Of a stretch of 64,000 bases of DNA, positions 18,166 to 53,165 are shown piece by piece (position 1 is the first letter of the stretch; the number at the start of each line of letters is the position of its first letter). Both the position numbers and the translations under genes were made by a program. Below the pieces are notes generated by a model. The model ran no database searches and was not told the DNA's origin. It was given only the letters and a program-made list of their open reading frames with translations. Source of the DNA: Patescibacteria group bacterium (GTDB lineage: Bacteria; Patescibacteriota; Patescibacteriia; PEXW01); the NCBI GenBank assembly GCA_041665345.1, contig JBAYJA010000001.1, positions 602,522 through 666,521 of the forward strand, read 5' to 3'.

Positions 18166-20127
18166 TTACGCGGCTGCTTTAAATTTTTCCCCACTCACGT
18201 CACCAGTCTTTTTCTTGCGGAGGCGGAACGCAAACCGAGAATCTGGACTAAACTGGTCGTCATCCGCAACCCACTCCCCGTCCAATGACAGTCCGTCCTC
18301 GCTTCGTCCGAGAGAAAAAATGTCCGGATAGCTCCTCCTCCCAATAATTTGCTTCATGCCAGTATATAATGACTCGTTCATTGGCTGGTTGGCGTATTTC
18401 AGTCGGTACTGTGGCCCCACATTCGCAGCACACGGTTCCAAACCCAACTCCTGGGCACGTTTGAGGATTTCCTTGATCGTGGTGTATCTCTGGAAACCCA
18501 AGCTTTGCACGGTAGGGCAAATTAGGTGAGCTGCTTCAGATTTTTCCATCACTGAAAAATCTGAACCCCATAGCATAGCTTTTGCGTGATCACTTATTAT
18601 GACGCCTTGTTCCTCAAGCTGGCGGAGAAGTTCTTCTTTTGTTGTGCCGCCAATCTCTATAGTATCTTGTCTGATACGTCCTTCGGGGAAGGATGTGTAG
18701 ATGTGTGCCATGCCTTCGGGCAGCATCTGGAAGATACCAGGAACGAGTTTGCCCACGTAGGCCTTTGTATCTTCGGTAATATCCCCGGCGTCTCGGGCGA
18801 TTTGGTCTGGGCTACACTCGAACACCACAGGCATATCTGCTTCAGGGTTGCGAGTTTTAAGGAGTTCAGCAATCCGCGGGTCGCGATCATAGCCGAAACC
18901 CTCAATTTCGCTATCCAGTTCGTAGAGGAAACAGAGTTGTTCCTTCGTGAGGGCTTCTCCTGCCTTCGTGGCGTGCTCAATGGCCGTGAGTATCTTCATG
19001 TCCGCAGACTTCTTCTTGTACCCTTCTGCGCCGGGGAGGCTAGCCATTTTCTGCTCGGCGATGTCTGCCATGTTGCCTTCCAGGTTCTGCTGGTTATCTG
19101 CCACCCCACGGACTTCACCAATGTGGTCACCATCCATGCGGATGGCAATGCGGGGAATAGTGGGTTTGCCTTGGCTGTCGAGAGTGTAGTACACGTGGAA
19201 GTCGCCACCTTCGAGCTGCTTCTGGGCTGTGGCAAAGCCTTTGGTGCACCAAGCTGTGCCTTTGTTCTGCAGGGAGGCCCAGAGCGCGGTGGGGTCAGTG
19301 CCCTTTTGGTACGTCACCCACTTGCCTTGGGTTTCCTCACGCATCTCTGGGGTAATTTCCCCGGCCTGGCGGATACCCTCGGCGTACTGCTTGGCAAAGG
19401 AGAGTTTCGCAAAGGCGGCGGCTTTCTCCTTAGTGAGGAGCTCACCTGCTGGGAGGTTGTTATTCGCGGCGGCGCGCTGGGCATCCTGGAGGCGCACCAG
19501 CATGCCTGGGTCTTTCGCGGCCTCAATCATCTGCTGTACGTGCGCCAAGGCTCCGTGGTCCACATCGGGGAACAGGCGGGTGGTACCGGGGGAACGCTTC
19601 GTGAACTCGCCTTTGTCCTTGTCAAAGTCCCCCATCTCCAGCACGTTGCGAAAGGCGTAGTACCGGAACCAAGTGGGGTAGGGTTCGTTGGCGTCAGAGA
19701 GGTACAGCAGCCAGTTGTCCAGGGACTTTTCCAGGTCGACGACGGCAATGTCGCCACGCTGGTCCAACGCTTCTTCGTTATACCGTACATCCATTCCCAG
19801 GTTGCGGGCTGCACGCTCTTCTACCCGCGCGGCACCTTCGGCTAGCTTGTCTTTGTTGGTACGGACGTACTTCTCCATGACCATCTCCCGCAGCAAGGAG
19901 AGAGCACGGGGTCGGGATTTCCCAGCCACCATTTTCTTACCTTGGGTCTTCTCCGAGTCCATGGCCAGCCGTTCCAGACGGCCAAGGTAGTTCTGGATTT
20001 TTGCTGCTGGATCCTGCGGGACTTTTTCACCCGTCCGTCCCTCCGTATGCACAGCAGCACGTTCCACCTCATCACTGGTGTGGAGGTTATACTTTTCTTT
20101 TAGAAATTCAGGATTTTCGCCACGCAT
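18166..20127 (-). CDS. Hypothetical soluble protein, 653 aa, no recognised family
   Basis: Long ORF with balanced composition and AGGAG RBS 7 nt upstream, spaced 9 nt from the upstream DUF2079 gene. No motifs I can assign. Confidence 0.6.
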   Translation of the reverse strand: MRGENPEFLKEKYNLHTSDEVERAAVHTEGRTGEKVPQDPAAKIQNYLGRLERLAMDSEKTQGKKMVAGKSRPRALSLLREMVMEKYVRTNKDKLAEGAARVEERAARNLGMDVRYNEEALDQRGDIAVVDLEKSLDNWLLYLSDANEPYPTWFRYYAFRNVLEMGDFDKDKGEFTKRSPGTTRLFPDVDHGALAHVQQMIEAAKDPGMLVRLQDAQRAAANNNLPAGELLTKEKAAAFAKLSFAKQYAEGIRQAGEITPEMREETQGKWVTYQKGTDPTALWASLQNKGTAWCTKGFATAQKQLEGGDFHVYYTLDSQGKPTIPRIAIRMDGDHIGEVRGVADNQQNLEGNMADIAEQKMASLPGAEGYKKKSADMKILTAIEHATKAGEALTKEQLCFLYELDSEIEGFGYDRDPRIAELLKTRNPEADMPVVFECSPDQIARDAGDITEDTKAYVGKLVPGIFQMLPEGMAHIYTSFPEGRIRQDTIEIGGTTKEELLRQLEEQGVIISDHAKAMLWGSDFSVMEKSEAAHLICPTVQSLGFQRYTTIKEILKRAQELGLEPCAANVGPQYRLKYANQPMNESLYTGMKQIIGRRSYPDIFSLGRSEDGLSLDGEWVADDDQFSPDSRFAFRLRKKKTGDVSGEKFKAAA

Positions 20128-20136
20128 ATACTACTC

Positions 20137-22560
20137 CTACTCTATCCCCTTTTTCTTGAAAAACCAAAAGTTGTTCTCGTGGTTCACTAGCTCAAAACGT
20201 TCATCCTTTTGCAAGTCTTCAAACTGTACGTGGTTTCGCTGCCACTCTAAAGAACCTTCTTTTGCCAGGAGGACGAGAATGTAATCTGCCAACTCAATCC
20301 CCTGGGGGAATTGGTACAGGTGTTCCCGCTCAGCCAGTTGCGCGCCAACGGTGTTGGTTGCAGAGACTGGTGCATTTTCTGGGATCTGGTCAATTGCCGC
20401 GTGGATAACTGGCGCCATGGGTGCGCGCCAGTATGCCCGCATATCTGCATGCTGTGCATACGGTAGTGGGCTGAGCCGGTATGACTCCACTGCCCCTATA
20501 ACGAGCAAGAAGAGGGCCAAGAAACCAAAAAGAGATAGTCTCATCCAAGACTTTACCCGCCGATCCCACCAGGCTCCAAAACGACGCTGGAGTGCTGCGA
20601 TGCCAAAGATGGTACTAATGAAGACAAAACCGCCAATCGCCGCCTGATAGTGATAGATGAGGGTTCGTGGCTCGATCCGTTCATTGAAAAGGTTCACCAC
20701 AAAATCTGGCCAGGCAACAGCCAGCCAGAGCGGACTGGCGATGGAAAGAAAGCCAACTGGCCCCATGACCCCAGCGTACATATGCCGTGCCTGCTTCCCC
20801 GCCACCATGGAGACAATCAACCGCGGATTGGTCGTTGCAGTTTTCAGAATTTCCGAAGGTGACGAACCTAGGGTATCGTACAAAACTGTGTACTTATTAG
20901 GCACACCATGCCGTGCAGCAGGCATGATGAGGAAGTACACCAAGCAGAAGTACGCAACAGCCAAGCCAATAACCGTAAGTGCTCGTTTCCAGGCAATACG
21001 ATCTCGGAAGTACATGAGCACCCCCACCCCGGCCACCATCAGTGCCAGCTCCTCTTTGCATAATGCGAAGAGGATGGCGAAAATAGCAAACCGCCACCAA
21101 CGCTTTTCCACCATAGCCAGGATCATGCCAATGGCAAAGGTTGGCGCTAAGGTTAAACCATGAAAGTCAAAGAGCACGGCACGTTGCAGGGTTGGGTAGA
21201 ACAGGTAGCTGAGCGCTAGGACCGCGGCTAGCCACTCGTGCCCCAGGACTTTTCTGGCCAACCGGAACACGAACCACCCACCCAAGGCCACAATGCAAGC
21301 CTGCAAGACGAGTAGCAACATGGGGCTGGCAAAAATCCAGTACAGCGGGGCGATGAGAATGAGAATGAAGTCCGCGTGGTGAATTGCTCGGTAGACTGTT
21401 TCCGTGCTGTAGGGGTTGGTAAATTGGAATATCCTACCCTGGCTGGTGTTCCATACGGTCTGGTCCATATTCCCCAGGTCAAACCGGGAAGTTATGACTT
21501 TGGACTGCATGACCAGGGTGATGATGGAAAAGTAAACTGCAAAACCGATAATGAAAACAACAACGATCCCGGCTGGGGTGCGGATTTTTTGCCAGAGCCA
21601 TACTAATCCTTGCCTGATGTACGACCAGGCAAAGATGCCAACGCATACAAACTCTGCAATCGTTGCGCCCAAACGGACAAGTGTGGCGGCAATAACGCTG
21701 CTAGGTCCCAAGCTGACGCTCAAGAGGCCAGCGAGCACGGCCTCTCGCACGCCAATGCCGCTGGGGGTGAGGAAGCTCAGGTACCCCAATGCCCAGCTCA
21801 GAGGCAGTGCGGCCAGCGCCAACACAATGGATACAGCCGCTTCAGTTTGAAAAGCTCGGAGCAGCAAATACCCACCAACGCTGTACGACGTCCATGCGAG
21901 GAGCTCCCACACGAAAATAGTACAGAAAACTTGCCCGCCAATTGGCGCTGCAACGAATTGCTTCCCCATGCGCTGCATACCCCAAGCCAAGAACCGGTGG
22001 ACAAGCTTGGTTGCAAAGACTGCAACCACCGCGCCAGCCGCACCAAGACCGCCAGCATACCGAACCCATGATGGAAGATCTGAAGTGAAAAGCGCAAACG
22101 CACCACCTAACGTTGCCGCTGCAGCCAGCATGCCCGCGACTTCAATAATCGTTGCGTACAACCCGGTGCCAGACGCCATCCCAAACTTTGCACTCTGCGC
22201 CATGCGGCCAAGCACGCTCCATACATTCCCCGGAATGTACCGCACTGCATCAGAGAGCATGATAACCTGTCCGGCTTCCCGGTACGACAGACGCGTACCC
22301 AAGGCTTTACTCAGGTGCTGCCAGGCAAAAATGCGGAAAAAGGAAAAGCCACTAAAACCAAGTAAGCCCAGCACCAGCCAGCGGACGTCCGGTGCGTGCC
22401 ACGCCTGCGCAACCGTGCCCCAGCTCTGTTGCAGAGCGCGTGCGAAGAAAAGAACGACAAGCAGGACAACCACGGTTGCCAGCACCCGGCGTATGGGCTT
22501 TTGCAGATTAGACCAGCTCACCATGCCCATTCCATTCATCTCGCACAGGGACAGAATCAC
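20137..22560 (-). CDS. Fusion membrane protein: N-terminal UPF0104 flippase-like (lysyl-PG-synthase TM-like) domain plus C-terminal DUF2079-like polytopic domain
   Basis: N-terminal ~330 aa are multi-TM with an LTPSGIGVREAVLAGLL motif typical of UPF0104. The remainder is polytopic with DLGNMDQTVWNTSQG typical of DUF2079. Overlaps the GT2 gene ORF end. Confidence 0.6.
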   Translation of the reverse strand: MILSLCEMNGMGMVSWSNLQKPIRRVLATVVVLLVVLFFARALQQSWGTVAQAWHAPDVRWLVLGLLGFSGFSFFRIFAWQHLSKALGTRLSYREAGQVIMLSDAVRYIPGNVWSVLGRMAQSAKFGMASGTGLYATIIEVAGMLAAAATLGGAFALFTSDLPSWVRYAGGLGAAGAVVAVFATKLVHRFLAWGMQRMGKQFVAAPIGGQVFCTIFVWELLAWTSYSVGGYLLLRAFQTEAAVSIVLALAALPLSWALGYLSFLTPSGIGVREAVLAGLLSVSLGPSSVIAATLVRLGATIAEFVCVGIFAWSYIRQGLVWLWQKIRTPAGIVVVFIIGFAVYFSIITLVMQSKVITSRFDLGNMDQTVWNTSQGRIFQFTNPYSTETVYRAIHHADFILILIAPLYWIFASPMLLLVLQACIVALGGWFVFRLARKVLGHEWLAAVLALSYLFYPTLQRAVLFDFHGLTLAPTFAIGMILAMVEKRWWRFAIFAILFALCKEELALMVAGVGVLMYFRDRIAWKRALTVIGLAVAYFCLVYFLIMPAARHGVPNKYTVLYDTLGSSPSEILKTATTNPRLIVSMVAGKQARHMYAGVMGPVGFLSIASPLWLAVAWPDFVVNLFNERIEPRTLIYHYQAAIGGFVFISTIFGIAALQRRFGAWWDRRVKSWMRLSLFGFLALFLLVIGAVESYRLSPLPYAQHADMRAYWRAPMAPVIHAAIDQIPENAPVSATNTVGAQLAEREHLYQFPQGIELADYILVLLAKEGSLEWQRNHVQFEDLQKDERFELVNHENNFWFFKKKGIE

Positions 22561-23591: not shown

Positions 23592-23648
23592 ATGTTTGGG
23601 TCACTTGACCCTAAAGATAGATGTATTTGAAAACAGAATACGAAATAA

Positions 23649-23676
23649 AGTATACAGTAATGAAAGTTTTTGTCAA
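23649..23676 (-). promoter_or_regulatory. Candidate sigma70 promoter TTGACA-N16-TATACT (minus strand)
   Basis: Reverse complement reads TTGACAaaaactttcattactgTATACT. It lies upstream of the terminator-like structure and the GT2 operon. Confidence 0.4.
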
Positions 23677-23742
23677 ATGGAAAGCACATTTTTGGCTTAG
23701 CTAAGCTAAAATTCCTAAGATATATTAATACCTTAACCACTG

Positions 23743-25623
23743 CTACTTGAACCGCACGACCTGACCAAAAGCAATGGGTTGTTCAGGGTCAGACTCTTTG
23801 GCGAGCTTGGGTTTTTGGGCAGGTGGAATAGGCTTTGGCTCTTCTGCTGGTGTTTGCGTAGGTTGAGATGTCGCAGCTGGTGCAATTGGCCGCTGGGAGG
23901 CCTGGGGTGCTGGAACCTGTGGCTGCAGTGGCCGGGGTTGCTGGTTGAAGCGTGGTGAAGGATTGTACGACGGTCGTCCACCAGGGCCTTGCCGGCGGGG
24001 GCCTTGGTGCTGGCCAAAACTGGAACCACCTTCCCGCCCAGGGCCGGTGGGACGAGGACCTTGTGGACGTGGGTACGGCGGTCTTTCAGAACGGGGTGCA
24101 GGTGACGCTGTACGATTTTCGCTGGGTGGTGCTGTTGGCTGGCTTGGCTGCGACTGTGGCAGCAAATCGCTGAGCTTCATTGCTGGTTGCTCAGGCGTGC
24201 TGGCGACAACTGGTTCCACCTCCACTTGGTCACGCTGGAAGAGATTATTTGGCGGCCGGCGCTTCTTGCCCTCTGCCCGGTATGGCGACTCCTCTTGCTG
24301 CACGGCAATGTTCTCCTCTTCAGCCGAAGCTCGGTACACCTCATCAACTCCGCTCCAGCGGAGAATTTTCTCTTCAACTTCTTTCTGTGGGGCGCTGTAC
24401 CGTTCCCGTGAAGCAGCAATCACCTTTGCTCGGTTGTCAGTTCGACCACCCACGGGCGGCAACGTGGTAGCGCTAAACGGTTCAGAGGCAACCCCGTCAA
24501 TCATCAACTTGAGGTAGATTTCGTACTTAGGGAGGTTCACTAAATCCACCTGGGTAAAGGTCGGGAAAAACTCTTTTTCCAAAAATTCACCATCTGCCCC
24601 ACCCACCCGGAATGCCATAATCGTACCCACGTTCCCAAAGACCGCCGGTGCAACCTTCTCATCCAACTGCTCAATGTACTGGTGGGCAATGGTGAGATTC
24701 AAACGGTACTTCCGAGCTTCGGAGAGAATGTTCGCAAAACTCTCCGTGGCAAAGTTTTGGAATTCGTCCACGTACAGGAAGAAGTCATGACGCTCTTCTT
24801 CCGGAATGTCCACCCGGCTCATGGCTGCCAGCTGCATGCGAGTAATCATCATGGCGCCCAGCAAGGCAGAGTTATCTTCACCAATGCGACCTTTGGAAAG
24901 GTTGAAGAGCAAAATTTTTCGGCTGTCCATTATTTCCCGCAAATCAATGGAACTCTTGGACTGGCCAACAATGTTGCGAATAATGGCACTGGAGAGAAAT
25001 TGCCCAACCTTGTTTTGAATTGGGGCCACTGCTTCATTCCGAAATTTGTCATTGTAATTATTAAATTCATCAACCCAAAAACCCTTGACGATTGGATCAG
25101 TGACCTTGGTGAGTACGCGGGTGCGGTAATTCCGGTCAACCAGCATCCGCGCCACCCCCAACATGGTTGAGCCAGGATACTCCAAGAGTGCGAGAATGGT
25201 GTTGTTCAAGATGTACTCCATACGCGCAGACCACACCCCTTCCCAAATCTTGGTAAACACACCCATTAAACCGGAAGCAACTAAGTGCCGCTGCGTTGCG
25301 TCCACTGCTTCCAGTACGTTGAACGCAATGGGGTACTCCATGTCAGACGGATTGAAGTACACCACATCATTCACTCGGTGGTTGGGAATGAAGTCTAAGA
25401 CTTTTTCCACCAGGTCGCCGTGCGGGTCAACCAGGGCTAAGCCATGACCAGCGTTGATATCATTAATAATCAAATTTTCCAAAACCGTGGTTTTGCCCAT
25501 ACCCGTCTTCCCAATGAGGTACATGTGGCGCCGGCGGTCATCCAGCTTTATGCCAAAACGCCGATGCCCACCCTGGTAATTGGTGGCAGCAAAAACGTTA
25601 ATTTCTGGACGCGCTTCAGGCAT
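23743..25623 (-). CDS. VirD4/TraG/TraD (TrwB)-like coupling-protein-type P-loop ATPase lacking N-terminal TM domain, with long Pro/Gln-rich C-terminal tail
   Basis: Walker A LIGKTGMGKTT at aa 35-45, then VDPHGD and Walker B FFLYVDEFQNF, matching the T4CP/FtsK-HerA superfamily. No hydrophobic N-terminus. The last ~150 aa are P/Q/S-rich and disordered. Confidence 0.65.
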   Translation of the reverse strand: MPEARPEINVFAATNYQGGHRRFGIKLDDRRRHMYLIGKTGMGKTTVLENLIINDINAGHGLALVDPHGDLVEKVLDFIPNHRVNDVVYFNPSDMEYPIAFNVLEAVDATQRHLVASGLMGVFTKIWEGVWSARMEYILNNTILALLEYPGSTMLGVARMLVDRNYRTRVLTKVTDPIVKGFWVDEFNNYNDKFRNEAVAPIQNKVGQFLSSAIIRNIVGQSKSSIDLREIMDSRKILLFNLSKGRIGEDNSALLGAMMITRMQLAAMSRVDIPEEERHDFFLYVDEFQNFATESFANILSEARKYRLNLTIAHQYIEQLDEKVAPAVFGNVGTIMAFRVGGADGEFLEKEFFPTFTQVDLVNLPKYEIYLKLMIDGVASEPFSATTLPPVGGRTDNRAKVIAASRERYSAPQKEVEEKILRWSGVDEVYRASAEEENIAVQQEESPYRAEGKKRRPPNNLFQRDQVEVEPVVASTPEQPAMKLSDLLPQSQPSQPTAPPSENRTASPAPRSERPPYPRPQGPRPTGPGREGGSSFGQHQGPRRQGPGGRPSYNPSPRFNQQPRPLQPQVPAPQASQRPIAPAATSQPTQTPAEEPKPIPPAQKPKLAKESDPEQPIAFGQVVRFK

Positions 25624-25625
25624 AG

Positions 25626-27176
25626 TTACTCAATGAAAGGAAGATTTGTTGGAATTTGCGGTTGCGGTGGTGCAGGCTCCGTTGGCTGCGGTTGCGCTGG
25701 GGCTACAGCTGGGGGCGGGGTCAGTGGCTCTGCTGTGGGAAGTGCTGCCGGCGCTGAGGCTTTTGCGGCAACTGAAGCTGAGCGCATTTTTTGGATAATT
25801 TGTGGGGTTTCCGTTGGCAGGTAAACTGGCGCCCCGCCCCGCTTCGTCTCCGATTTCTGCACTTGCCCAGCTTTCACGTCAATGGTTGGGAAGTGGAAAA
25901 TGGATGCCATTTCTTCAACATTCATGTAGATTGCTTCGCGGCCACGCCACACCGAACGAATGCGATAGTTGTACAAATTACGCCGCTTCCGGTCTCGCAT
26001 CCGGTACTCCTTCAAAAGCACAATATCACTGGTCTTTGTGAGTTTGCTAAAGGTAAAAATGTTACTATCCGCAATTGCGTACTGCTTCAACGCACCAACG
26101 ACGCCGTTCACGCCCTTGGCTTTGTTAAAAGGTTTCCGACCATCTGGCCCGGGCGTGACTTTCCCCCAGTAAATGAAACGACCCTTGACCTTGAAAGCGA
26201 TTTTCGAAAGCTTCATTTCAATCTGGGTTACCGTATCCCGCTCACCCGGAGAGAGGTGCAGCATGAGGGAAGGCGGATCATCCTTCTTCTGCTTCTGCGT
26301 TTCCCATGACCCAGGAGGGATGAGCGAGGCGGTGAGCGCTTCCCGAACACCCTGACCCACAAGCCGTGGCACCTCCCAAGGGCTACCTTTTTCCTTCCCC
26401 TTCTTGCCAATAAGCTTGTGCACAATTTCCTGTGCTTTGTCGCGCCAGGCGTAGTCCTCTTGCTGCAAGCACCACTGAATCCAAATCTGCTCGTCAGGAC
26501 TAATACGGCTCATAATTTCCAGTAACGCACCCATAGGATCAATGAGCTTCTGCGACATGCTGTGTTCGAAGAAGGGGTAGGTCCGGATTGGGTAGGCACT
26601 GTGGCGTAAAAAGTTTATTTGTGCGGACCAGCAGTCCCACTCTTTCTGATGCTCCAGCTCTCTAGGCTTCGGCATGAAATCCACATAGTCCTCCACCTCG
26701 GTAATTTCCGCATCTGGGTACTGAGCGTAAATTGCAGACTCAATGATGTCTCGTTGAATAATAAGGCAACGGACAAAAAATTGGACGTACCCACCCAAAC
26801 TCGCAATTTCTACCGACATGTTTGGCGGCACGAAGCCGTACGAAAAAAACTCGGTGAAAGGCAAGCCCCACTTCTCTGGAAAAATTGGCTGTTTGGAAAT
26901 GCCATGGAAGTGCGCGAACATCTGCTCCGCTGCTTTTGGAGTTTGCTCGCTATTTTTGGGCACATCCACCGCCAAGAGCACGTACTTCCCCACGTAGTTC
27001 TTCATGACGTACCGGGTGGTAATCCACTCAAACCAGGCGTACTTCATGCCAACGAGAAAGGTCCAAACCACAGCGATCCAGCCACCGTTGTTGAAAATGA
27101 AAATCGCCATACTGACCGGGTTTCCGGCAGAGGCGCGAAAATCATTCAGGAGAAGCGTGGTGTCGAGGAGGGCCAT
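25626..27176 (-). CDS. Hypothetical membrane-anchored protein (single N-terminal TM, 516 aa, Pro/Ala-rich tail)
   Basis: TM segment VSMAIFIFNNGGWIAVVWTFLVGM, a large domain of unknown family, and a C-terminal PAxP-rich tail. Lies 2 nt upstream of the ATPase gene. Confidence 0.5.
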   Translation of the reverse strand: MALLDTTLLLNDFRASAGNPVSMAIFIFNNGGWIAVVWTFLVGMKYAWFEWITTRYVMKNYVGKYVLLAVDVPKNSEQTPKAAEQMFAHFHGISKQPIFPEKWGLPFTEFFSYGFVPPNMSVEIASLGGYVQFFVRCLIIQRDIIESAIYAQYPDAEITEVEDYVDFMPKPRELEHQKEWDCWSAQINFLRHSAYPIRTYPFFEHSMSQKLIDPMGALLEIMSRISPDEQIWIQWCLQQEDYAWRDKAQEIVHKLIGKKGKEKGSPWEVPRLVGQGVREALTASLIPPGSWETQKQKKDDPPSLMLHLSPGERDTVTQIEMKLSKIAFKVKGRFIYWGKVTPGPDGRKPFNKAKGVNGVVGALKQYAIADSNIFTFSKLTKTSDIVLLKEYRMRDRKRRNLYNYRIRSVWRGREAIYMNVEEMASIFHFPTIDVKAGQVQKSETKRGGAPVYLPTETPQIIQKMRSASVAAKASAPAALPTAEPLTPPPAVAPAQPQPTEPAPPQPQIPTNLPFIE

Positions 27177-27182
27177 CGTGAA

Positions 27183-28325
27183 TTAGGCCGAAGGTACGTT
27201 TGCGAGGGTGTACTCGCCGGTTGGGAGTTTGGTAAATTTGGAACGATTGGTGAGTGCCAGGTGGATGGTATTTCGTTTCACGACGCGCTGCTTCAGCACC
27301 TCCTGCACCAGTTCATCACGTCGCATTGGTCGGCCAGCTTTCTGTAAGGTAGTCACAAGTATGTCAGCAACTACGCCTGGCTGAAAGCCCCATTCCTGCA
27401 GAGCATAAATTCCACGGCCAATGAGCACGTACTCTTTATTGAGAATGAGCTCATTATGCACGGTTGGTGCGTACGCAGTCCGATGATCAAATTTTGCTTC
27501 ATTAATGAGCCGAGTGATCTCATTGAAGTGTAGGGGTTTCTTTGCCTTCTGTAGCACTAAGTGTATCTTATCATTCATTCGCTTGGGGACGATACTCCCC
27601 CACGCCACCAAGCCATACTCATCGTACGGATTACGAGCTAAAACCGTGCTGACATCAATGTACGCACTAATGGCGTTGTCGGTTAACTGAAAGCGGTGTT
27701 CCTGTGCGAAAGCGGTTTTTCCAATTTCTTGGAGCAATTCTTGCAATTTTATTGGTGTCTGACGTGCTTCGAGAATCCGCACCGCCTCGGTAATGGTATC
27801 AGCTACTAAGTGCACCGGGGCAGTCACAGACTGCCACGCTGGCCAGTAGCTTGGATTCTCCTGGAACCGCTTGCAACGATCAGCAAGCAAAAATTCCATC
27901 AAGAAGAGTGTGCAGGCGCGGTAGCCTGCATGCGTATCATTGACTCCCAAAAGTTGCTGCAGAAACATTTCTTCCCGCATGACTCCGCCGTGCTGGTCAA
28001 GCACTGTGGTAATAGCGTCTGCTACCGGTTGCAATAATTCATGCACGCCGTGCAATTTTCGGAGTTTCCCAATTGCGCCAGTGGCAATTTGACGAACCCG
28101 TTCTCGCGTCACCTTGTAGTAGGCACCAATCATCTCCAGGGTTTGCGCATCTTCTCCATTGAGGGCATGCCGACGACGCAAAATATCCTCTTCCCGAGTG
28201 GGTAAAGATTTTAGCAGCGTGGTTACCACCTCAACTGGGTTGAAGTGCTCAATCTCCTGGGTCTGCTTCTGGGAGAGTACTCGGTCGAGAATGGAACTGG
28301 TATTGTCGCTTTGCACGTTGTCCAT
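27183..28325 (-). CDS. Sigma-70 region 4-like HTH protein with large C-terminal domain of unknown function
   Basis: Residues ~45-100 LPTREEDILRRRHALNGEDAQTLEMIGAYYKVTRERVRQIATGAIGKLRK match the sigma-70 r4.2 HTH. Start placed at ATG (MDNVQ), because the -10 box lies inside the longer GTG-started ORF. Confidence 0.55.
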   Translation of the reverse strand: MDNVQSDNTSSILDRVLSQKQTQEIEHFNPVEVVTTLLKSLPTREEDILRRRHALNGEDAQTLEMIGAYYKVTRERVRQIATGAIGKLRKLHGVHELLQPVADAITTVLDQHGGVMREEMFLQQLLGVNDTHAGYRACTLFLMEFLLADRCKRFQENPSYWPAWQSVTAPVHLVADTITEAVRILEARQTPIKLQELLQEIGKTAFAQEHRFQLTDNAISAYIDVSTVLARNPYDEYGLVAWGSIVPKRMNDKIHLVLQKAKKPLHFNEITRLINEAKFDHRTAYAPTVHNELILNKEYVLIGRGIYALQEWGFQPGVVADILVTTLQKAGRPMRRDELVQEVLKQRVVKRNTIHLALTNRSKFTKLPTGEYTLANVPSA

Positions 28326-28351
28326 ACAATGGATTTCGCTAATCGTTGCAT

Positions 28352-28380
28352 AGTATATCACTTTGTTTACAACATGTCAA
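28352..28380 (-). promoter_or_regulatory. Sigma70 promoter TTGACA-N17-TATACT for the three-gene operon
   Basis: Reverse complement reads TTGACAtgttgtaaacaaagtgaTATACT, ~27 nt upstream of the ATG at 28325. Confidence 0.5.
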
Positions 28381-28429
28381 GTTTTTGTGATGAAATACAA
28401 AAAGACTCACCCCACCAATGAGCAGTCTT

Positions 28430-29332
28430 TTACGCCCGCCGCCGTTGCTTCCAGTTGTTCCAAACAACGAGCAAGGATGCAGCGACAAAAATAGAGGAAT
28501 ACGTTCCGGCGGCTATCCCGATGAGCAATGCAAGAATGAAGTACTGTATGGAACCCCCACCAAAGAGCACAAGCGCAATGAGAATGAAAATTGCTGTAAG
28601 TGAGGTGTTGATTGACCGAACCATGGTCTGGTTCAAACTTTCATTCACCACCTCGTCAAAGTGCTTTCCGACAGACTGTAATACTCGTTCTCGAATCCGG
28701 TCGTACACCACAATGGTATCGTGGACAGAAAACCCAAGGACAGTCAAGAGGGCGGTGACGAAGAGCGCATCAACTTCGACGCCTCCAAAGTGGCCAAGGA
28801 TGGCGAAGACGCCGATGACAATGCCAACATCATGGATGAGGGCAATAATTGCCGAAGCACCGTATACCCATGACGGCACAGGACCAGCGGACACTTTCCG
28901 AAACGCCCAGGTAACGTAGACAACAATCAAAGCGAGTACAAGAATAGTTGCGACAATTGCTTTACGCTTCAGTTCGGCACCAATGGTTGGACCTATCGTT
29001 TCAAAACTTGCTTCCGCAAAAGTTGGGTCCTGCTTCTGCAGCGCCGCAAGAATCGTATCGTGCTGCTCATTGGTTATGTGTTCCATCCGAAGGATGATCC
29101 CCTTGCTTTCACTGGTTTGCACATGCACTGTACTCACACCAGTGTCACGAACTGCTTTTTCCAAATCAGCCGTGCTTGGCACAGTTTCAGCAAACGAGCC
29201 ACGGAGCAATGTGCCGCCGGTGAAATCAATACCCAGCCGTAAACCCCAGACTGCCCACGCCACAAGCCCAGGAATGACCAGAACGAGTGAGAGGGTAAAG
29301 AAGATGTTTCGCTTTTGGACTATCCGGTACAT
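28430..29332 (-). CDS. secF: Protein translocase subunit SecF
   Basis: Six-TM RND-like topology with a conserved SecF periplasmic domain, immediately downstream of secD. Confidence 0.85.
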   Translation of the reverse strand: MYRIVQKRNIFFTLSLVLVIPGLVAWAVWGLRLGIDFTGGTLLRGSFAETVPSTADLEKAVRDTGVSTVHVQTSESKGIILRMEHITNEQHDTILAALQKQDPTFAEASFETIGPTIGAELKRKAIVATILVLALIVVYVTWAFRKVSAGPVPSWVYGASAIIALIHDVGIVIGVFAILGHFGGVEVDALFVTALLTVLGFSVHDTIVVYDRIRERVLQSVGKHFDEVVNESLNQTMVRSINTSLTAIFILIALVLFGGGSIQYFILALLIGIAAGTYSSIFVAASLLVVWNNWKQRRRA

Positions 29333-29335: not shown

Positions 29336-31054
29336 TTACTTCGGTTCAGACGAATCAAGACGGACACCGTACAAGCTCAATTTTTGCGCCCATTTGAATT
29401 GTATGACCAAGCGGAGCAAATTCCGGGTCACGGTAATTGCAGAGAAGAGACTTACCACAATACCAATGAGTAACGTAATGGCAAAACCTTTAATGAGACT
29501 GGAACCAAACCAAATGAGAATGAGCGCCGTAATCATGCTCGAAGCATTGGAGTCTCGAATGGAAAGCCACGCTCGTTTAAAGCCTTCTTGGATTGCGCTA
29601 TCCAACGGGTGCCCGGCTCGCAACTCTTCTTTCGTTCGCTCAAAAATGAGGATATTCGCATCAACAGCAATGCCTATGGTCAAAATGAATCCAGCGATCC
29701 CAGCTAAGGTGAGCGTCACTGGCCAGAGTTTGAAAATCGTCAGCACCAGCAAGGTGTACAGACCCAACGCGATCACCGAGAGGAAGCCTGGTAAACGGTA
29801 GAAAAAAATCATGAATAGTGCCACGACGATGATTCCCAAAAGCCCAGCAAATAAGCTGCGCTGAATTGAATCTGCACCCAATGAAGCACCAACGGTTTGC
29901 TGGCTCACAAGGGTAACGGGAACAGGAAGCGCGCCGGCATTCAGGCGACGGGCCAGGTCTTTTGCATCTTTCAACGTAAAGCTTCCACTAATAACCGCAT
30001 TGCCACCGGTAATTTCCTGATTCACCGTTGGGTTACTGAGGATTTGGCCATCCAGGAAGATCGCTATGGTCTTCCCAATATTCCGCTTCGTAATTTCAGC
30101 GAAGAGTTTTGACCCCTCGTCGTTGAATGTGAGAGCCACCTCAGGCTCGCCAGTCGTTTGCGCAAACGTCACGTCTGCACGCTTCAACTGCTTGCCAGTT
30201 AAGCCAGTAGCAACAAATTGTGCACTCGTTTGGGCAGCAGGATCGGTAGTGGTGAAAAGGATATGACTTCCTCGAACTTCTTGCACATCTTTCCCATCAA
30301 CCTTTGTTGTCCGGGCTTCAATGCGCTTTATAATGTGGTAGCCAAATTGCGTTTTCACTAACTTGGACGTCACTTCTCCATCTTGCAGGTCATCGAAGAG
30401 GGCTTTCTCAAATTCCGCAACAAATGTACCACGCTGGGCAAAACCTAAATCGCCACCCTTTCCCTGTCCATCAGTTCCTGCATTACTTGGGTCTTGCGTA
30501 TTCTCATTTGCTAACTTCGCAAAGTCTGCGCCAGCCGTACGTGCCTGGGTTAAAATGCTTTCGGCTTTTTTCTTCACTTCGGCATTGGCTTTTTCAGCTG
30601 CCGCCTTCTGCTCAGCTGTAGGTGCGGGTGGCGTTCCCGCTTCTTGAAATTCCAAAATTGGCGTGTCACCAATGAGCTGGATTGCTTGGGAGATGTCCTT
30701 AATCCCAGCAAGCTCCACAATGATTCGCCATTTGTCCCCTACTCTACTGGTTTGGACTACTGGTTCTGATACTCCAAAAGCATTCACACGCTGTTCAATA
30801 ACGTCACGTGCGCTATCCAGTGCCGCGGCTTGATCAGCCGCAGCCAGAGCCTCTGTATTTGCTTCGTAGACCAAAGATGCTCCACCCTGTAAATCCAGCC
30901 CCAGGCGGAGGTCAAAAGACCGTTGCAAAAACGGCAATTTGACATTCAATTTTTCAGGAAGGGCAATGTGGGCGGTAACCGCGGTCAAGAGGATTATCCC
31001 ACCAAAGGCAGACCAGAGTTTTGTTCGTGTCGTCATAGGGCAAAAACGCGCCAA
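29336..31054 (-). CDS. secD: Protein translocase subunit SecD carrying an inserted parvulin-type PPIase domain
   Basis: SecD TM1 plus LGLDLQGG and a C-terminal six-TM bundle. Between ~aa 141 and 270 lies a rotamase domain (ADFAKLA...KGGDLGF...FVAEFEKALF...GEVTS..VKTQFGYHIIK..SHILF). Confidence 0.85.
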   Translation of the reverse strand: MARFCPMTTRTKLWSAFGGIILLTAVTAHIALPEKLNVKLPFLQRSFDLRLGLDLQGGASLVYEANTEALAAADQAAALDSARDVIEQRVNAFGVSEPVVQTSRVGDKWRIIVELAGIKDISQAIQLIGDTPILEFQEAGTPPAPTAEQKAAAEKANAEVKKKAESILTQARTAGADFAKLANENTQDPSNAGTDGQGKGGDLGFAQRGTFVAEFEKALFDDLQDGEVTSKLVKTQFGYHIIKRIEARTTKVDGKDVQEVRGSHILFTTTDPAAQTSAQFVATGLTGKQLKRADVTFAQTTGEPEVALTFNDEGSKLFAEITKRNIGKTIAIFLDGQILSNPTVNQEITGGNAVISGSFTLKDAKDLARRLNAGALPVPVTLVSQQTVGASLGADSIQRSLFAGLLGIIVVALFMIFFYRLPGFLSVIALGLYTLLVLTIFKLWPVTLTLAGIAGFILTIGIAVDANILIFERTKEELRAGHPLDSAIQEGFKRAWLSIRDSNASSMITALILIWFGSSLIKGFAITLLIGIVVSLFSAITVTRNLLRLVIQFKWAQKLSLYGVRLDSSEPK

Positions 31055-41516: not shown

Positions 41517-42610
41517 ACGCGCACGCTTTTAGAGACATTCAGAGCAATGCCAATGGCAGCCAGGGTAATAATTAAGGACGTGCCACCATTAGAAATGAAG
41601 GGTAAGGGTACACCGGTCAACGGCAAAATGCCACTCAGCGCCCCAATATTCACAAAGGCCTGCAAAGTGACCCAGGTAATGACCCCCACCATAATCAGCC
41701 GGCCAAACGGGTCGCTCAGCCGCCGTGCCAGCTGCTGCCCGCGCCAGAAGAAACCAACGTAGAGTGCAACGAGACCCACGACCATGAAGAAGCCTAGCTC
41801 TTCGGCCGCAATGGCAAAAATCGAATCGCCCTCAGCTTCCGGCAAGTAGTTAAATTTTTGGATGGACCGGCCGTAGCCCCGGCCAAAGAGCCCACCAGAG
41901 CCAATAGCCAGCAAGGACTGATTAATGTGGTACCCCTCATCTTGCTGGCTGGACGATGGGTTGAGGAAAATGGTCAGCCGTGCGGCGCGGTAGGGTTCAA
42001 AGGTAATGAGCAACATAATGGCCACGACGCCTGCTGCAAACAGCAGCGCAATGTACCGACCCGGCGCACCGGCCGCCACGTAGAGGACAGTCGCAATGCC
42101 CACAATGACAATGCTCGTACCCAAGTCAGGCTGCAGAATGAGCATACCGCCAATGGCGCCAATCAAAATCAGTAAACGCACAAACACCCGCTGGGGTTCA
42201 CGCTCCAAATCGCCTAGCTTGGTAAACCACCGCGCCAGGAAAAGAATAAGCGCCAACTTGAGCAACTCCGAAGGTTGGAAGAACAAACCACCAAAGGCAA
42301 TCCACCGCTTGGCGCCCAAAAGCGAGGTGCCCACTCCAGGGATGAAGAGGGCAACGACGAGCAGGAAACTCACCACCAGAATTGGGACTGCCCACTTCTG
42401 CCAGTGCAGGTACGGTACCCGGGCCAGGAGCAGCATGATGGCAATCCCCAAGCAGAGGGAAATGATTTGCTTGGTCACGTACCCGTTTGGGTCGCCCAAA
42501 TTTTGGAAGGCAGCCACACTGCTGGCTGAAGCCAAAATGATTATGCCAATGACGCAGAGAGCAAGGGTGAGGCTGAGTAAAATGCCGTCGACGCTCTGAG
42601 AGGATTTCAT
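41513..42610 (-). CDS. ftsW: SEDS family peptidoglycan glycosyltransferase FtsW
   Basis: Ten-TM SEDS family pattern, located between murD and murG. Confidence 0.85.
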   Translation of the reverse strand: MKSSQSVDGILLSLTLALCVIGIIILASASSVAAFQNLGDPNGYVTKQIISLCLGIAIMLLLARVPYLHWQKWAVPILVVSFLLVVALFIPGVGTSLLGAKRWIAFGGLFFQPSELLKLALILFLARWFTKLGDLEREPQRVFVRLLILIGAIGGMLILQPDLGTSIVIVGIATVLYVAAGAPGRYIALLFAAGVVAIMLLITFEPYRAARLTIFLNPSSSQQDEGYHINQSLLAIGSGGLFGRGYGRSIQKFNYLPEAEGDSIFAIAAEELGFFMVVGLVALYVGFFWRGQQLARRLSDPFGRLIMVGVITWVTLQAFVNIGALSGILPLTGVPLPFISNGGTSLIITLAAIGIALNVSKSVRV

Positions 42611-46187: not shown

Positions 46188-46209
46188 TCCTCGTCCTCTT
46201 CGTTTGTGC

Positions 46210-49775: not shown

Positions 49776-49784
49776 ACCACTAGT

Positions 49785-51005
49785 ATGCCAACCTTTGCGT
49801 ACACTGCCCGCGCTACCAACGGTGCCACCACCTCTGGGACGTTGGAAGCAAAAGATGAAAAATTCCTAGCCGCGGTCCTCAACGTTCGCGGACTTGCATT
49901 GCTCAACGCACACCAGGCTGAAGCAAAGAGTGGGAAGAAAAAATTTAGCCTGAATATTTCTTTTGGTGGGGTTCCCATTGTCCAGAAAATTTTCTTCTTG
50001 CAGAATTTGCAAGTGATGGTCCGAACCGGTTTCTCCCTTGGGCACGCGCTCGATACCCTTGCCCTGCAAACGGAGCATAAAATGTTCCGGGGGATTATTC
50101 AGGAACTCAGCCACGATGTTGAGGCGGGCACGACGCTTTCCGCAGCCATGGGCAAGCACCCCAAGGTTTTTACGGAGCTGTTCACCAACATGATTGCAGC
50201 TGGTGAAGTGTCAGGTAAATTAGAGGAAGTGCTGAAGCGACTGACTATTCAAATTAAGAAGCAGCACCAACTTGTTTCAAAAATCAAGGGTGCACTCACC
50301 TACCCCATCATTGTGGTTTCCGCCATGGTTGTTCTCGGCGTGGTCATGATGGTTGCGGTGCTCCCCAAACTCCTTACGGTATTTGATCAATCTGGCGGCG
50401 TGCTCCCGCTGCCGACACGCATTCTCATTGCCATCTCCAATTTTCTGCAACACAACTTGGTGTACGTCATCATTGGCGCGATTATCGTGGTCTTCACCTT
50501 CCGCTGGGCGGTGAAAAAGGGCAAGGGCCGTGCGTACTGGCATAGCTTTTTGCTGCAGCTGCCAATCCTGGCGCCAATCATGAAGAAAATTAACTTAGCA
50601 AAGTTTACCCGAAACTTAAGTTCACTCCTCAAAACCGACATCCCGATTGTGCAAACGTTTCAAATTATTTCCAAAACCTTGGGGAACGATAGCTACCGAC
50701 GCGCACTGGAGCACACGGCCGAGATGCTGAAGAAAGGTGCAAATATATCAAAAGTCCTTGCTCAGTCTCCCAAACTTTTTCCGCCCATTGTCGTGCAAAT
50801 GATTGCCGTGGGTGAAGAAAGTGGTACGCTGGATACAATCTCCGAAGAAATTGCAAACTTCTACGAAGAAGACGTTGACCAAATCATGTCTAACCTGACG
50901 TCTATCTTAGAACCAATTCTCATTCTCCTGCTGGGCGCGGGTGTTGCAGGCATGGTGGTTGCCGTAATTTTGCCTATTTACTCCCTCAGTGATCAAATAA
51001 CCTAA
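49785..51005 (+). CDS. pilC: Type IV pilus inner-membrane platform protein PilC (GspF family)
   Basis: Two GspF repeats and three TM segments of typical size. Confidence 0.85.
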   Translation: MPTFAYTARATNGATTSGTLEAKDEKFLAAVLNVRGLALLNAHQAEAKSGKKKFSLNISFGGVPIVQKIFFLQNLQVMVRTGFSLGHALDTLALQTEHKMFRGIIQELSHDVEAGTTLSAAMGKHPKVFTELFTNMIAAGEVSGKLEEVLKRLTIQIKKQHQLVSKIKGALTYPIIVVSAMVVLGVVMMVAVLPKLLTVFDQSGGVLPLPTRILIAISNFLQHNLVYVIIGAIIVVFTFRWAVKKGKGRAYWHSFLLQLPILAPIMKKINLAKFTRNLSSLLKTDIPIVQTFQIISKTLGNDSYRRALEHTAEMLKKGANISKVLAQSPKLFPPIVVQMIAVGEESGTLDTISEEIANFYEEDVDQIMSNLTSILEPILILLLGAGVAGMVVAVILPIYSLSDQIT

Positions 51006-51008
51006 TCC

Positions 51009-53163: not shown

Positions 53164-53165
53164 TA

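Follow-up and report, generated by a model that had tools for sequence, protein, structure and literature searches.

Two neighbouring genes of a Patescibacteria (CPR) bacterium, here called B and C, very probably encode parts of one machine. The balance tips slightly towards B and C being the halves of one membrane-anchored ATPase of the coupling-protein lineage, whose gene underwent fission between two domains. Together with an upstream gene A, both are found in the window (i.e., the whole analysed stretch of 64,000 nt), which is housekeeping chromosome and not a mobile element. The respective features are as follows.

23743..25623, minus strand: gene C, 626 aa
25626..27176, minus strand: gene B, 516 aa
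27183..28361, minus strand: open reading frame of gene A; from its ATG 27183..28325, 380 aa
28380..28352, minus strand: promoter-like site TTGACA-17-TATACT, 11/12 matches, with an extended -10 TG
28430..29332, minus strand: secF, directly upstream of the A-B-C unit
29336..31054, minus strand: secD, upstream neighbour, next to secF

The reading frames and junctions confirm what an earlier sequence-only reading had described, i.e., three minus-strand genes separated by 6 nt (A-B, TAA-TTCACG-ATG) and 2 nt (B-C, TAA-CT-ATG) behind a near-consensus promoter just after secDF. For gene A, the ATG at 28325 yields 380 aa, which is also the length given in public records, while the upstream GTG of the reading frame falls within the promoter. 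The promoter-like site is placed just past secF, about 27 nt 5' of this ATG. In a scan of 5.4 kb (23300-28700), only two sites reach such quality and both are intergenic and ahead of genes; promoter-like matches overall show no excess (5 observed vs. 4.1 expected from shuffling). This supports a compact unit of three genes that has a promoter of its own.

The surroundings within the window, which is taken from a contig of 1.08 Mb, are housekeeping genes, with SecA in the same block. Gene annotation covered about 2.9-35.6 kb and 39.8-61 kb of the window, and six more reading frames outside or inside these spans were scanned one by one. Among these genes and reading frames, none encodes a relaxase, VirB4, an integrase or another mobile-element function, and no nuclease, Sir2, methylase or transposase is near the locus. 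The reported lack of relaxase and VirB genes is hence upheld, and embedding in an ICE, named beforehand as an outcome that would speak against the earlier interpretation, is not seen. Paralogues of A, B or C are not found elsewhere in the window. The GC content of the locus (0.51-0.53) shows no anomaly compared to the window (0.46-0.56).

Gene C is, as judged from its motifs and profile matches, a soluble P-loop ATPase of the TrwB/VirD4/DotL type. The coupling-protein signature noted earlier is present, i.e., a Walker A motif (GKTGMGKT, aa 38), VDPHGD and a Walker B motif (FLYVDEFQNF, aa 282), all in an ATPase region spanning aa 1-455. Pfam assigns TrwB_AAD_bind (2.6e-11) and T4SS-DNA_transf (6.5e-8) as well as DUF87 and TraG-D_C; AAA_10, P-loop_TraG and CagE_TrbE_VirB do not match. 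The best NCBIfam match is the VirD4-like CD1115 family, accompanied by a weak match to the DNA-translocating ATPase CedD (1.1e-5). A search of PDB sequences retrieves TrwB (1.2e-8) and DotL (5.3e-8), with neither VirB4 nor FtsK at E <= 1. Likewise, FtsK_SpoIIIE from Pfam gives no match at E < 0.1 and no gamma domain is found, such that the profile searches place C among coupling proteins and not with housekeeping FtsK/SpoIIIE. Hydropathy reveals no membrane segment, in agreement with the anchor-less protein proposed before. The disordered, Pro/Gln-rich tail comprises 171 aa (40 Pro, 21 Gln). Among the homologues, roughly half carry a PG(Q/E)x(I/V)-type motif at the tip of this tail; in some lineages, a zinc ribbon takes its place.

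Hydropathy and composition also bear out the N-terminal membrane helix and the Pro/Ala-rich tail ascribed to gene B. The single N-terminal helix (about aa 24-52, with the hydrophobic segment at about aa 24-45) reaches a maximum KD of 1.66, i.e., no more than a moderate hydrophobicity, and its flanking charges predict the N-terminus to be outside and the C-terminus inside. It is followed by an alpha/beta domain of roughly 370 aa (about aa 65-430), predicted to be cytoplasmic, and by a disordered tail of 80 aa (aa 437-516) that ends in the family-wide motif PPxNLP[FVI] (present in 69/80 species). The domain, formerly described as large and unknown, belongs to Pfam family PF26449 (DUF8128), which is carried by the homologues of B, and its predicted fold resembles the VirB4 N-terminal domain. 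That is, for the AlphaFold2 model (pLDDT 76, pTM 0.70), the best 14 Foldseek matches are all TrwK/VirB4. This likeness is at the level of the modelled fold only, and profile comparisons with VirB4 sequences and all PDB sequences gave no match. The N-terminal domain of VirB4 is located under the membrane and touches channel subunits. The B family comprises 3,315 representatives at 50% identity.

Proteins in which both parts are fused provide evidence for B and C being halves of one protein. In the phage family phrog_5156 (824 positions), B matches at 77-285 (8e-9) and C at 407-806 (6e-60). For its member gp156 of Bacillus phage G (825 aa), hhalign aligns B aa 68-252 with a probability of 97.2% (E 3.6e-11), and tblastn relates it to gene C at 1e-39. 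Furthermore, the same CPR genomes encode an 856-aa protein (L017:1530-4100) that aligns to B aa 34-444 (probability 99.7%, E 2.8e-25), including the membrane helix and an EELASxxHFP motif, and that carries TrwB_AAD_bind at aa 433-785. The existence of such fused proteins, along with the B-C adjacency described below, backs the earlier suggestion that B supplies the membrane anchor in trans.

Gene B is present in at least 507 CPR species. We evaluated the neighbourhood of loci from 80 species, where denominators refer to decidable loci. C is found immediately 3' of B in 58 of about 75 loci (~77%; median gap ~3 nt), while B is without adjacent C in about 17/75 species. B-C is a core gene pair, for which the former label "orphan" is misleading, and the neighbourhood check finds this pairing conserved across species but gene A in only about half of them. 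SecD-SecF immediately precedes (A)B in 42 loci (~60%), is farther away in 6, and absent in 22. Among the 42, there are 20 with C directly downstream that have nothing between secF and B. The same block includes SecA in 23 loci, a 364-aa family in 27 (presumably MnmA) and a 602-aa family in 22 (which we take to be alanyl-tRNA synthetase). Downstream of C, no neighbour is conserved, each candidate family occurring in at most 8 loci. Across species, C shows a median identity of 65% (60 orthologues) compared to 52% for SecD and 47% for SecF. We lean, if only slightly, towards A-B-C being a vertically inherited transcription unit of the core chromosome of Patescibacteria. Its link to secDF is positional, and A-B-C has its own promoter in the window.

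Gene A, which contains the string TLEMIGAYYKVTRERVRQIATGAIGKLRK, has a sigma-70 region 4 domain (about aa 30-90; Sigma70_r4 1.7e-11), confirming the helix-turn-helix recognized earlier. The subsequent ~280 aa, for which no family had been given, form four tandem winged helices (about aa 94-166, 171-239, 250-309 and 319-374). The third of these matches HARE-HTH (Pfam, 4.6e-8) and resembles the N-domain of the RNA polymerase delta subunit; the respective NCBIfam model RNAP_delt_lowGC scores 33.6 bits, i.e., below its cut-off of 42, and gene A is without the acidic C-terminal tail of delta. Using the AlphaFold2 model (pLDDT 89, pTM 0.73), Foldseek finds region 4 of sigmaA (30-45% identity) and tandem winged-helix proteins, e.g., SelB WH2-4, UFL1/DDRGK1 and Rpc5, but no solved protein with the whole four-winged-helix architecture. 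As in sigmaA, the recognition helix is intact, and its -35-recognition residues TRERxRQI are invariant across the A family. In contrast to sigma-70, gene A has no sigma region 2 or 3 and therefore cannot open promoters. It probably binds DNA or RNA polymerase.

Since gene A is directly upstream of B in only about 40/77 decidable species loci, its link to B-C is loose. This and its likeness to an RNA-polymerase-related factor weaken the earlier proposal of A as a DNA-binding partner of the module. It is co-transcribed with B-C here, and together this makes a regulator or adaptor more likely than an obligatory subunit. That A is functionally unrelated to B-C, i.e., a general CPR transcription factor that associates with RNA polymerase and merely shares the neighbourhood, is a serious possibility, if one we incline slightly against. 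Its region 4 would then bind the beta-flap and the -35 element, with the delta-like HARE-HTH as an addition, which fits both the invariant recognition helix and the delta match. The spacing points the same way, since A-B gaps often exceed 100 nt across species compared to the ~3 nt of B-C, and Uhrbacteria and Magasanikbacteria keep SecDF-B-C without A. On the other hand, 6 nt separate A from B in the window, with one promoter ahead of both, the two genes are neighbours again in distant lineages despite a B identity of only 31-42%, and the perfect TTGACA of the operon promoter could be recognized by A itself.

When compared to known systems, the motor of C is of the same lineage as type IV coupling proteins (VirD4/TrwB/TraD/DotL), and its long disordered C-terminal tail with conserved tip is reminiscent of TraD. 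Fused relatives with a long N-terminus are found among the long coupling proteins of monoderms, with a relaxase-type protein and a VirB4-like ATPase encoded alongside. For instance, on the Embleya plasmid NZ_CP108778, an 812-aa relative fills the coupling-protein slot of a Gram-positive-type conjugation cluster (PrgI, VirB4-like ATPase, the 812-aa protein, Replic_Relax, NlpC/P60). Unlike coupling proteins, the B-C protein is split over two genes, has one helix plus a VirB4-NTD-like domain instead of the usual two-helix anchor, is without relaxase, VirB4 or channel gene nearby, and is vertically inherited in a housekeeping block by secDF.

VirB4/TrwK has the same layout, with a membrane-proximal domain at the N-terminus ahead of a RecA-like ATPase, and its total length (~800-850 aa) is comparable to the 825-856 aa of the fused proteins from CPR bacteria and phages. 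In some VirB4 proteins, VirB3 is fused to the N-terminus, which the N-terminal helix of B parallels. Different from VirB4, the motor of C scores as VirD4-type and B has no sequence similarity to VirB4 N-domains. The phrog_5156 proteins (gp156 and its homologues in SPO1-like phages) show the fused B-like plus C-like architecture with only 24-27% identity to gene C. The gene of gp156 adjoins that of a VirB4-like ATPase (gp155) and, unlike B, gp156 lacks a membrane helix at its N-terminus; its alignment to B begins at aa 17. Finally, the dsDNA translocases FtsK/SpoIIIE and TraB of Streptomyces belong to the same HerA-FtsK superfamily as C, and they resemble the proposed machine in being membrane-anchored hexameric motors with winged-helix DNA recognition and Pro/Gln-rich disordered linkers. 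Here, the domain order differs from these translocases, and the putative DNA-recognition module would be a separate protein, namely A.

We consider it fairly probable that B-C is a polymer translocase. B would provide one N-out/C-in membrane helix along with the cytoplasmic VirB4-NTD-like domain, and C the P-loop motor, whose hexamer B would hold against the membrane from the cytoplasmic side. Powered by ATP hydrolysis, C would push a polymer substrate towards a membrane conduit encoded elsewhere, and the short conserved motifs that end the disordered tails of both proteins are probably docking peptides. Going by the behaviour of the family, DNA or a nucleoprotein would be the most likely substrate, with protein as the alternative; DNA specifically is a tentative assignment that we hold at rather less than even confidence. 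A candidate for this conduit is the T4SS that CPR bacteria encode on the chromosome, without relaxase. Within 10 kb, neither the window nor the 80 loci contain channel, VirB4, VirB6, pilin or relaxase genes, and VirB3, VirB6 and VirB8 were not found as neighbours of B-C; the conduit is therefore hypothetical, and docking of B-C on the CPR T4SS is possible but doubtful. According to a 2025 survey (Quinonero-Coronel et al. 2025, PMC12102498), VirD4-like genes are found in 96% of CPR genomes vs. 80% for VirB4, and Tn-seq of Southlakia epibionticum (citing Wang 2023) found the VirD4-like gene dispensable and T4SS genes essential. Both argue against an obligatory T4SS partnership.

The gene order suggests that B-C might instead cooperate with SecDF/SecA at the membrane as a protein-handling motor, e.g., as a dislocase or assembly ATPase akin to VirB4 that acts on pilins or other envelope proteins inserted by Sec. 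VirB4 has been proposed as an extractor of pilin from the membrane, SecD-SecF is directly upstream in about 42/70 loci, conservation of the neighbour is much stronger upstream than downstream, and SecA is in the block both in the window and in other loci. We nonetheless regard this as unlikely. The block also holds the unrelated 364-aa and 602-aa families, such that part of the secDF linkage may be frozen gene order; there is no SecDF nearby in 22 loci, the unit in the window has its own strong promoter after secF, and C, by its sequence, belongs to a class of motors known above all for handling DNA. A housekeeping DNA pump that works independently of a T4SS, with C as motor, B as anchor and A as DNA-recognition module, seems about equally improbable. 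It would serve FtsK-like chromosome segregation or power DNA uptake or exchange, analogous to TraB of Streptomyces, which is FtsK-like, and to the Ced importer of archaea. The conservation of C above that of SecDF, its weak CedD match, the five DNA-binding-type domains of the co-transcribed A and the missing relaxase and channel genes are in favour, as are the near-universal VirD4-like genes of CPR (PMC12102498) and their natural competence and reliance on scavenged nucleotides (PMC12857230, citing Wang 2023). The missing FtsK_SpoIIIE match and gamma domain of C are at odds with it, and so is FtsK itself, reported from at least one CPR bacterium (TM7x). Moreover, about half of the species lack A at this locus and its sigma region 4 and delta-like modules suggest RNA polymerase rather than a translocase, the VirD4-like gene was dispensable in S. 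epibionticum co-culture (PMC12102498), and competence of that species is ascribed to type IV pili and ComEC (PMC12857230).

Very improbable is an anti-phage defence module, be it of the MADS type or of the HerA/FtsK-like type suggested earlier, or a decayed conjugative element or prophage remnant. PADLOC does match C (mad8 5e-15 plus weak HerA models), region 4 of A matches the defence-associated sigma factor MzaA, and Bacillus phages as well as plasmids carry homologues. However, the MzaA match spans the generic region 4 only, the position is fixed in a housekeeping block in at least 80 species with C at 65% identity, and neither an effector partner or mobile-element gene (nuclease, Sir2, methylase, integrase, relaxase, transposase) nor a GC anomaly is found at the locus.

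For the coupling-protein-lineage machine B-C, these results connect to the 2025 survey (PMC12102498), which reports 5,713 VirD4-like homologues in 2,918/3,035 Patescibacteria genomes (96%), i.e., about two per genome, of which just 148 are near virB4. In the passages covered by reading or term search, we found no mention of B (DUF8128), its fold, the split/fused paralogue pair, gene A or the secDF synteny. The set of C genes almost certainly corresponds to the orphan VirD4-like genes of the survey. Their occurrence in 96% of CPR genomes is thus already known, and the survey's authors allow for an exaptation of these genes.

Three co-directional genes on the minus strand lie just behind secDF in the window. 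The open reading frames, their spacing, the promoter, the position relative to secDF and every motif quoted by the sequence-only reading were confirmed. Genes and promoters are located as follows.

Genes and promoters of the A-B-C unit
27183..28361, minus strand: open reading frame of gene A (sigma region 4 and winged-helix protein); 380 aa from the ATG at 28325
25626..27176, minus strand: gene B (membrane-anchored DUF8128-family protein); 516 aa
23743..25623, minus strand: gene C (VirD4/TrwB-type ATPase); 626 aa
28380..28352, minus strand: promoter of A-B-C, TTGACA-17-TATACT; 11/12 positions matched, extended -10 TG
23676..23649, minus strand: second near-consensus promoter, TTGACA-16-TATACT; 11/12 positions matched, after C and before a glycosyltransferase gene

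Gene A almost certainly starts at the ATG at 28325, since public assemblies call this start and the upstream GTG falls within the promoter. The A/B junction reads TAA-TTCACG-ATG (gap 6 nt) and the B/C junction TAA-CT-ATG (gap 2 nt). The two promoters are the only sites of 11/12 quality in the 5.4 kb scanned, for which promoter-like matches in total are not above shuffle expectation; the one at 23649..23676 forms the 3' boundary of the unit. An AT-rich hairpin past secF (about 28431-28400) fails the terminator scan. The immediate upstream neighbours of A are secF and secD. The respective SecD (29336..31054, minus strand) contains, ahead of its P1-head domain, an inserted peptidyl-prolyl isomerase of parvulin type (Pfam Rotamase, Rotamase_3), and the same insertion is seen in a Kerfeldbacteria SecD (L001:4141-5793).

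Two contigs carry the identical genes, namely a metagenomic one of 1.08 Mb and one of 25.9 kb from GCA_041660445.1, and the nearest homologues are titled Patescibacteria group bacterium. The GC content of the locus is ordinary for the window. The gene content of the window is housekeeping only, i.e., aminoacyl-tRNA synthetases, alanine racemase, PriA, Def, Fmt, MnmA, SecA, SecD and SecF, the envelope and cell-wall genes MurB, MurC, MurD, MurG, FtsW and MraY, as well as RmlD, ribosomal proteins and the genes of a type IV pilus. A search of these genes for a relaxase, VirB4, integrase or transposase gave no match. The triad is thus not part of an ICE or conjugative element, a setting that the sequence-only reading had named as speaking against its proposal.

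The type IV pilus assembly cluster (about 48048..53400, plus strand; PilB-like ATPase, PilC, PilM, PilN and small unannotated ORFs) is the sole other envelope-spanning machine within the window. The mur/ftsW/mraY cluster includes a 703-aa fusion (42607..44718, minus strand) of a Cu-oxidase_4 domain (YfiH/PgeF-type) with a complete MurD ligase. For the ORF at 46090-47967, a look-up gave no record. An ~800-aa fusion of LPG_synthase_TM and DUF2079 (20137..22560, minus strand) neighbours a 653-aa ORF without Pfam family (18166..20127, minus strand).

Pfam, NCBIfam and PDB-profile matches assign the P-loop domain of C to the VirD4/TrwB clade, i.e., they predict C to be a coupling-protein-type motor. 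That is, C matches TrwB_AAD_bind (2.6e-11), T4SS-DNA_transf (6.5e-8), DUF87 and TraG-D_C above the curated Pfam cut-offs, NCBIfam matches it best with the VirD4-like CD1115 family, and the C family profile has TrwB (1.2e-8) and DotL (5.3e-8) as nearest PDB sequences, with no VirB4 or FtsK chain at E <= 1. The motifs Walker A (GKTGMGKT, aa 38) and Walker B (FLYVDE, aa 282) are intact. None of the Pfam models AAA_10, P-loop_TraG and CagE_TrbE_VirB matches C, which places it outside the VirB4-clade ATPases. Nor does C score as FtsK/SpoIIIE, the second outcome named beforehand as adverse: FtsK_SpoIIIE (PF01580) gives no match at E < 0.1, and the combination of motor domain and gamma winged helix was not found.

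The same-chain N-terminal membrane anchor is absent from C and lies instead on B, a protein of its own. Hydropathy of C peaks at KD 1.17, such that no hydrophobic segment is seen, and the family consensus begins ~28 aa ahead of Walker A. With regard to the all-alpha domain that coupling proteins carry within the nucleotide-binding domain, TrwB_AAD_bind aligns over profile positions 13-309 of 387. The tail of C comprises 171 aa, among them 40 Pro and 21 Gln. Compared to type IV coupling proteins, the P-loop motor is alike, whereas the same-chain anchor and the association with relaxase or T4SS genes are lacking. C shares a median of 65% identity with its orthologues from 60 further CPR (i.e., Patescibacteria) species and is better conserved than SecD (52%) and SecF (47%) of the same loci, which argues for an important, so far unrecognised cellular role; respective medians are 36% for A and 35% for B.

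B has one hydrophobic segment (about aa 24-45), for which the flanking charges predict an N-out/C-in orientation with a cytoplasmic domain. There is no match to B in local Pfam, NCBIfam and PADLOC, and local Pfam is likewise silent on homologues bearing a precomputed PF26449. This recent Pfam family (DUF8128) is annotated for most of the listed B homologues at 36-45% identity. The B family comprises 3,315 representatives at 50% identity and is present in genomes of at least 507 species. Rather than an orphan operon, the finding is considered a phylum-wide machine. Among the B-encoding records, every title with a CPR lineage name refers to Patescibacteria; a minority of B-bearing MAG titles is labelled otherwise (e.g., 'uncultured Gammaproteobacteria').

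The AlphaFold model of B (36 sequences; pLDDT 76, pTM 0.70) consists of N-terminal helices, an alpha/beta domain (aa 65-430) and a disordered tail. The top 14 Foldseek hits of this model are TrwK/VirB4 chains (E 5e-5 to 1e-2). Based on the model, B is predicted to carry a VirB4-type N-terminal domain, with kinship at the fold level only. The link is considered structural since profile comparisons with VirB4 sequences are negative, i.e., the B profile finds nothing at E <= 10 among all PDB sequences and reaches a probability below 1% for both an Embleya VirB4-like protein and phage G gp155. With regard to VirB4, the N-domain of B is thus alike in fold, whereas the ATPase of C is not of the VirB4 clade.

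Sequence comparisons and modelling together indicate that B-C is the gene-fission form of a membrane-anchored ATPase in which a motor of VirD4 type would be joined to an N-domain resembling that of VirB4. Three independent fused B+C forms were found, namely the phage family phrog_5156, phage G gp156 and a CPR paralogue. Within phrog_5156 (824 positions), B is located at 77-285 and C at 407-806. For gp156 of the Bacillus jumbo phage G (825 aa), the hhalign probability versus aa 68-252 of B is 97.2%, and C is matched at 1e-39 by tblastn. No tblastn match of B was found in phage genomes; the link between B and phages came solely via PHROG profile and hhalign. CPR genomes with the split pair also encode the fused paralogue (~855 aa), which accounts for the literature value of about two VirD4-like genes in each CPR genome. 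Its copy L017:1530-4100 matches aa 34-444 of B (probability 99.7%, E 2.8e-25), membrane helix and EELASxxHFP motif included, and continues into a TrwB_AAD_bind domain (aa 433-785); other copies are L010:27-2585 and L083:17950-20514. The existence of such fused forms with a membrane helix supports the earlier suggestion that the anchor of C is supplied in trans by B.

A disordered tail is lacking in the fused paralogue, whose helix is strongly hydrophobic; split B and split C have each gained such a tail. B ends in PPxNLP[FVI] in 69/80 species, and about half of the species show a PG(Q/E)x(I/V)-type motif (also given as PG(Q/E)x(I/V)xF) at the C-terminus of C. In some lineages, a zinc ribbon takes the place of the latter; comparison by eye, with no statistic, gave no obvious relation between zinc ribbon or terminal motif and the presence of A. 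The terminal motifs (C-termini at window 25626..25670 for B and 23743..23790 for C; orthologues L005-L084) follow long disordered linkers. Several lineages with non-adjacent C differ in the B terminus (e.g., EEYG, KFG, LPYG).

The surroundings of the fused forms were recorded as well. In phage G (L085, JN638751.1; 1295-5437), the VirB4-like ATPase gp155 is directly followed by the fused B-like/C-like gp156, and SPO1-like Bacillus phages also encode a C-like ATPase. The CPR fused paralogue is preceded by a conserved ~165-aa ORF without known family (L017:1027-1524, plus strand; L083:20511-21005, minus strand; 53% identical over 91 aa), to which the A profile shows no similarity, and dnaX is found near the paralogue in two genomes.

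Conservation of the neighbourhood was assessed for 80 species loci with 10-kb flanks on each side of B. Of about 75 loci decidable for C, 58 have it immediately after B (median gap ~3 nt), and A is directly upstream in about 40/77 with gaps often above 100 nt. That is, the link of A to B-C is real in the window and loose across the phylum. SecD-SecF immediately precede (A)B in 42 loci, lie farther off in 6 and are absent in 22; the order SecD-SecF-B-C without A is observed in 20 loci, mostly from Uhrbacteria and Magasanikbacteria. Clustering of neighbouring ORFs reveals a wider conserved block with families of 906 aa (23 loci), 364 aa (27 loci) and 602 aa (22 loci), which we take to be SecA, MnmA and alanyl-tRNA synthetase, respectively. 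No gene directly following C is conserved in more than 8 loci. The secDF linkage is clearly stronger than the downstream linkage, yet embedded in general core-genome synteny. Given this synteny and the own promoter of A-B-C in the window, we consider the Sec link of B-C a lead rather than a result.

Single-sequence queries for VirB4, PrgI and Replic_Relax, which are of limited sensitivity, gave no similar ORF up to 10 kb from B in any of the 80 loci. The association with a relaxase or T4SS channel known from coupling proteins is thus seen neither in the 64-kb window nor in the 80 loci. B-C is a vertically inherited, strongly constrained CPR core gene pair outside any mobile element; a mobile-element reading was rejected in view of genomic context and conservation. 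The same holds for a defence-type HerA/FtsK-like system as considered by the sequence-only reading. It can draw on generic ATPase similarity of C alone (PADLOC: mad8 5e-15, HerA 1e-7), while the HerA/MADS partners (NurA, Sir2, DUF4297, mad1-7) are absent among the annotated window genes and the locus is fixed, syntenic in 80 species and strongly conserved.

In the model of A (pLDDT 89), four winged-helix domains come after a sigma region 4 domain; the third one matches HARE-HTH and, at a score under the model cut-off, the N-domain of RNA polymerase delta. Region 4 is 30-45% identical to that of sigmaA, and the recognition helix TRERxRQI is invariant across the A family. Possible binding targets of A are the RNA polymerase flap or -35-like DNA, such as the TTGACA element in front of A itself. 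A is not a sigma-70 factor since region 2 is absent: Sigma70_r4 is the sole Pfam sigma domain, NCBIfam sigma models align by their C-terminal 60-100 residues alone and far under their cut-offs, and winged helices make up the remainder of the model. An RNA polymerase delta subunit was rejected as well, because the respective model TIGR04567 scores 33.6 bits (cut-off 42; aa 261-324 only) and no acidic C-terminal tail is visible in the sequence. The A profile shows no similarity to the Replic_Relax protein.

Outside CPR, 335 plasmid records encode C-like ATPases, with Streptomyces, Bacillus, haloarchaea and Sulfolobus among the hosts. Among the plasmid records listed, C is closest to a 395-aa ATPase that stands alone between transposases on an alphaproteobacterial plasmid (Sulfitobacter mediterraneus NZ_CP081110.1, L088, 6935-8122; 43% over 366 aa), which may reflect horizontal transfer. 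A Gram-positive-type conjugation cluster on an Embleya plasmid (PrgI, VirB4-like ATPase, 812-aa protein, Replic_Relax, NlpC/P60) includes a protein of 812 aa whose C-like domain spans about aa 410-790. The wider C family is thereby placed where monoderm-type T4SSs have their coupling protein, in agreement with the monoderm (MPF-FATA) ancestry proposed for the CPR T4SS (PMC12102498). The B profile is collinear with the N-terminus of the 812-aa protein over 307 columns, with a common ELAxLxHxP motif (probability 10.8%, E 0.003), which is suggestive of N-terminal kinship.

A T4SS-type partner of B-C is favoured by homology and by the VirB4-like docking domain. On the other hand, Quinonero-Coronel et al. 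2025 (PMC12102498) reports VirB4 in 2,417/3,035 CPR genomes and VirD4-like homologues in 2,918/3,035 (96%; 5,713 copies, 148 of them near virB4), and the VirD4-like gene of S. epibionticum as dispensable in Tn-seq while T4SS genes are essential. Higher prevalence and dispensability both argue against an obligatory T4SS role. In the same study, relaxases are almost absent from CPR genomes, and exaptation of the VirD4-like genes "cannot be ruled out". Wang et al. 2023 found no recognisable coupling protein in the S. epibionticum T4SS cluster. According to Guglielmini et al. 2013, VirD4 and VirB4 are sister clades, and coupling proteins acquired an integral-membrane N-terminus. A literature search on DUF8128 found no paper, and nothing decisive was found on a link of SecDF and coupling proteins in CPR or on FtsK distribution in CPR. 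The split, the fold of B, gene A and the secDF synteny are not described in the literature consulted.

Mechanistically, B would tether a C hexamer beneath the membrane, and the C motor would feed a polymer into a conduit encoded elsewhere. By family precedent, DNA would be the most likely cargo, with protein as the alternative. B-C may dock on the relaxase-less CPR T4SS, act autonomously or cooperate with the Sec machinery. As a far-reaching and rather unlikely reading, B-C, possibly with A, might be a CPR-wide housekeeping membrane translocase descended from a conjugative coupling protein and no longer serving conjugation or any T4SS, i.e., a VirB4-type N-domain on a VirD4-type motor that, beside SecDF, moves DNA or protein over the single membrane of epibionts, e.g., to acquire host-derived nucleic acid. 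In this reading, it would be a living intermediate between the two signature ATPases of type IV secretion.

Much of bacterial diversity belongs to Patescibacteria, whose genomes are tiny and which rely on host cells. Their VirD4-like ATPases, present in 96% of genomes, were assigned to no system by the 2025 survey. This orphan now has a defined predicted architecture, i.e., a membrane-anchored motor made of two chains, one of which belongs to the uncharacterised family DUF8128 and would have a VirB4-like fold. Added to this are a fused paralogue, a conserved place beside secDF and, with A, a candidate partner that may bind DNA or RNA polymerase. The pairing of a VirB4-type N-domain with a motor of VirD4 type is relevant to the divergence of both type IV secretion ATPases.
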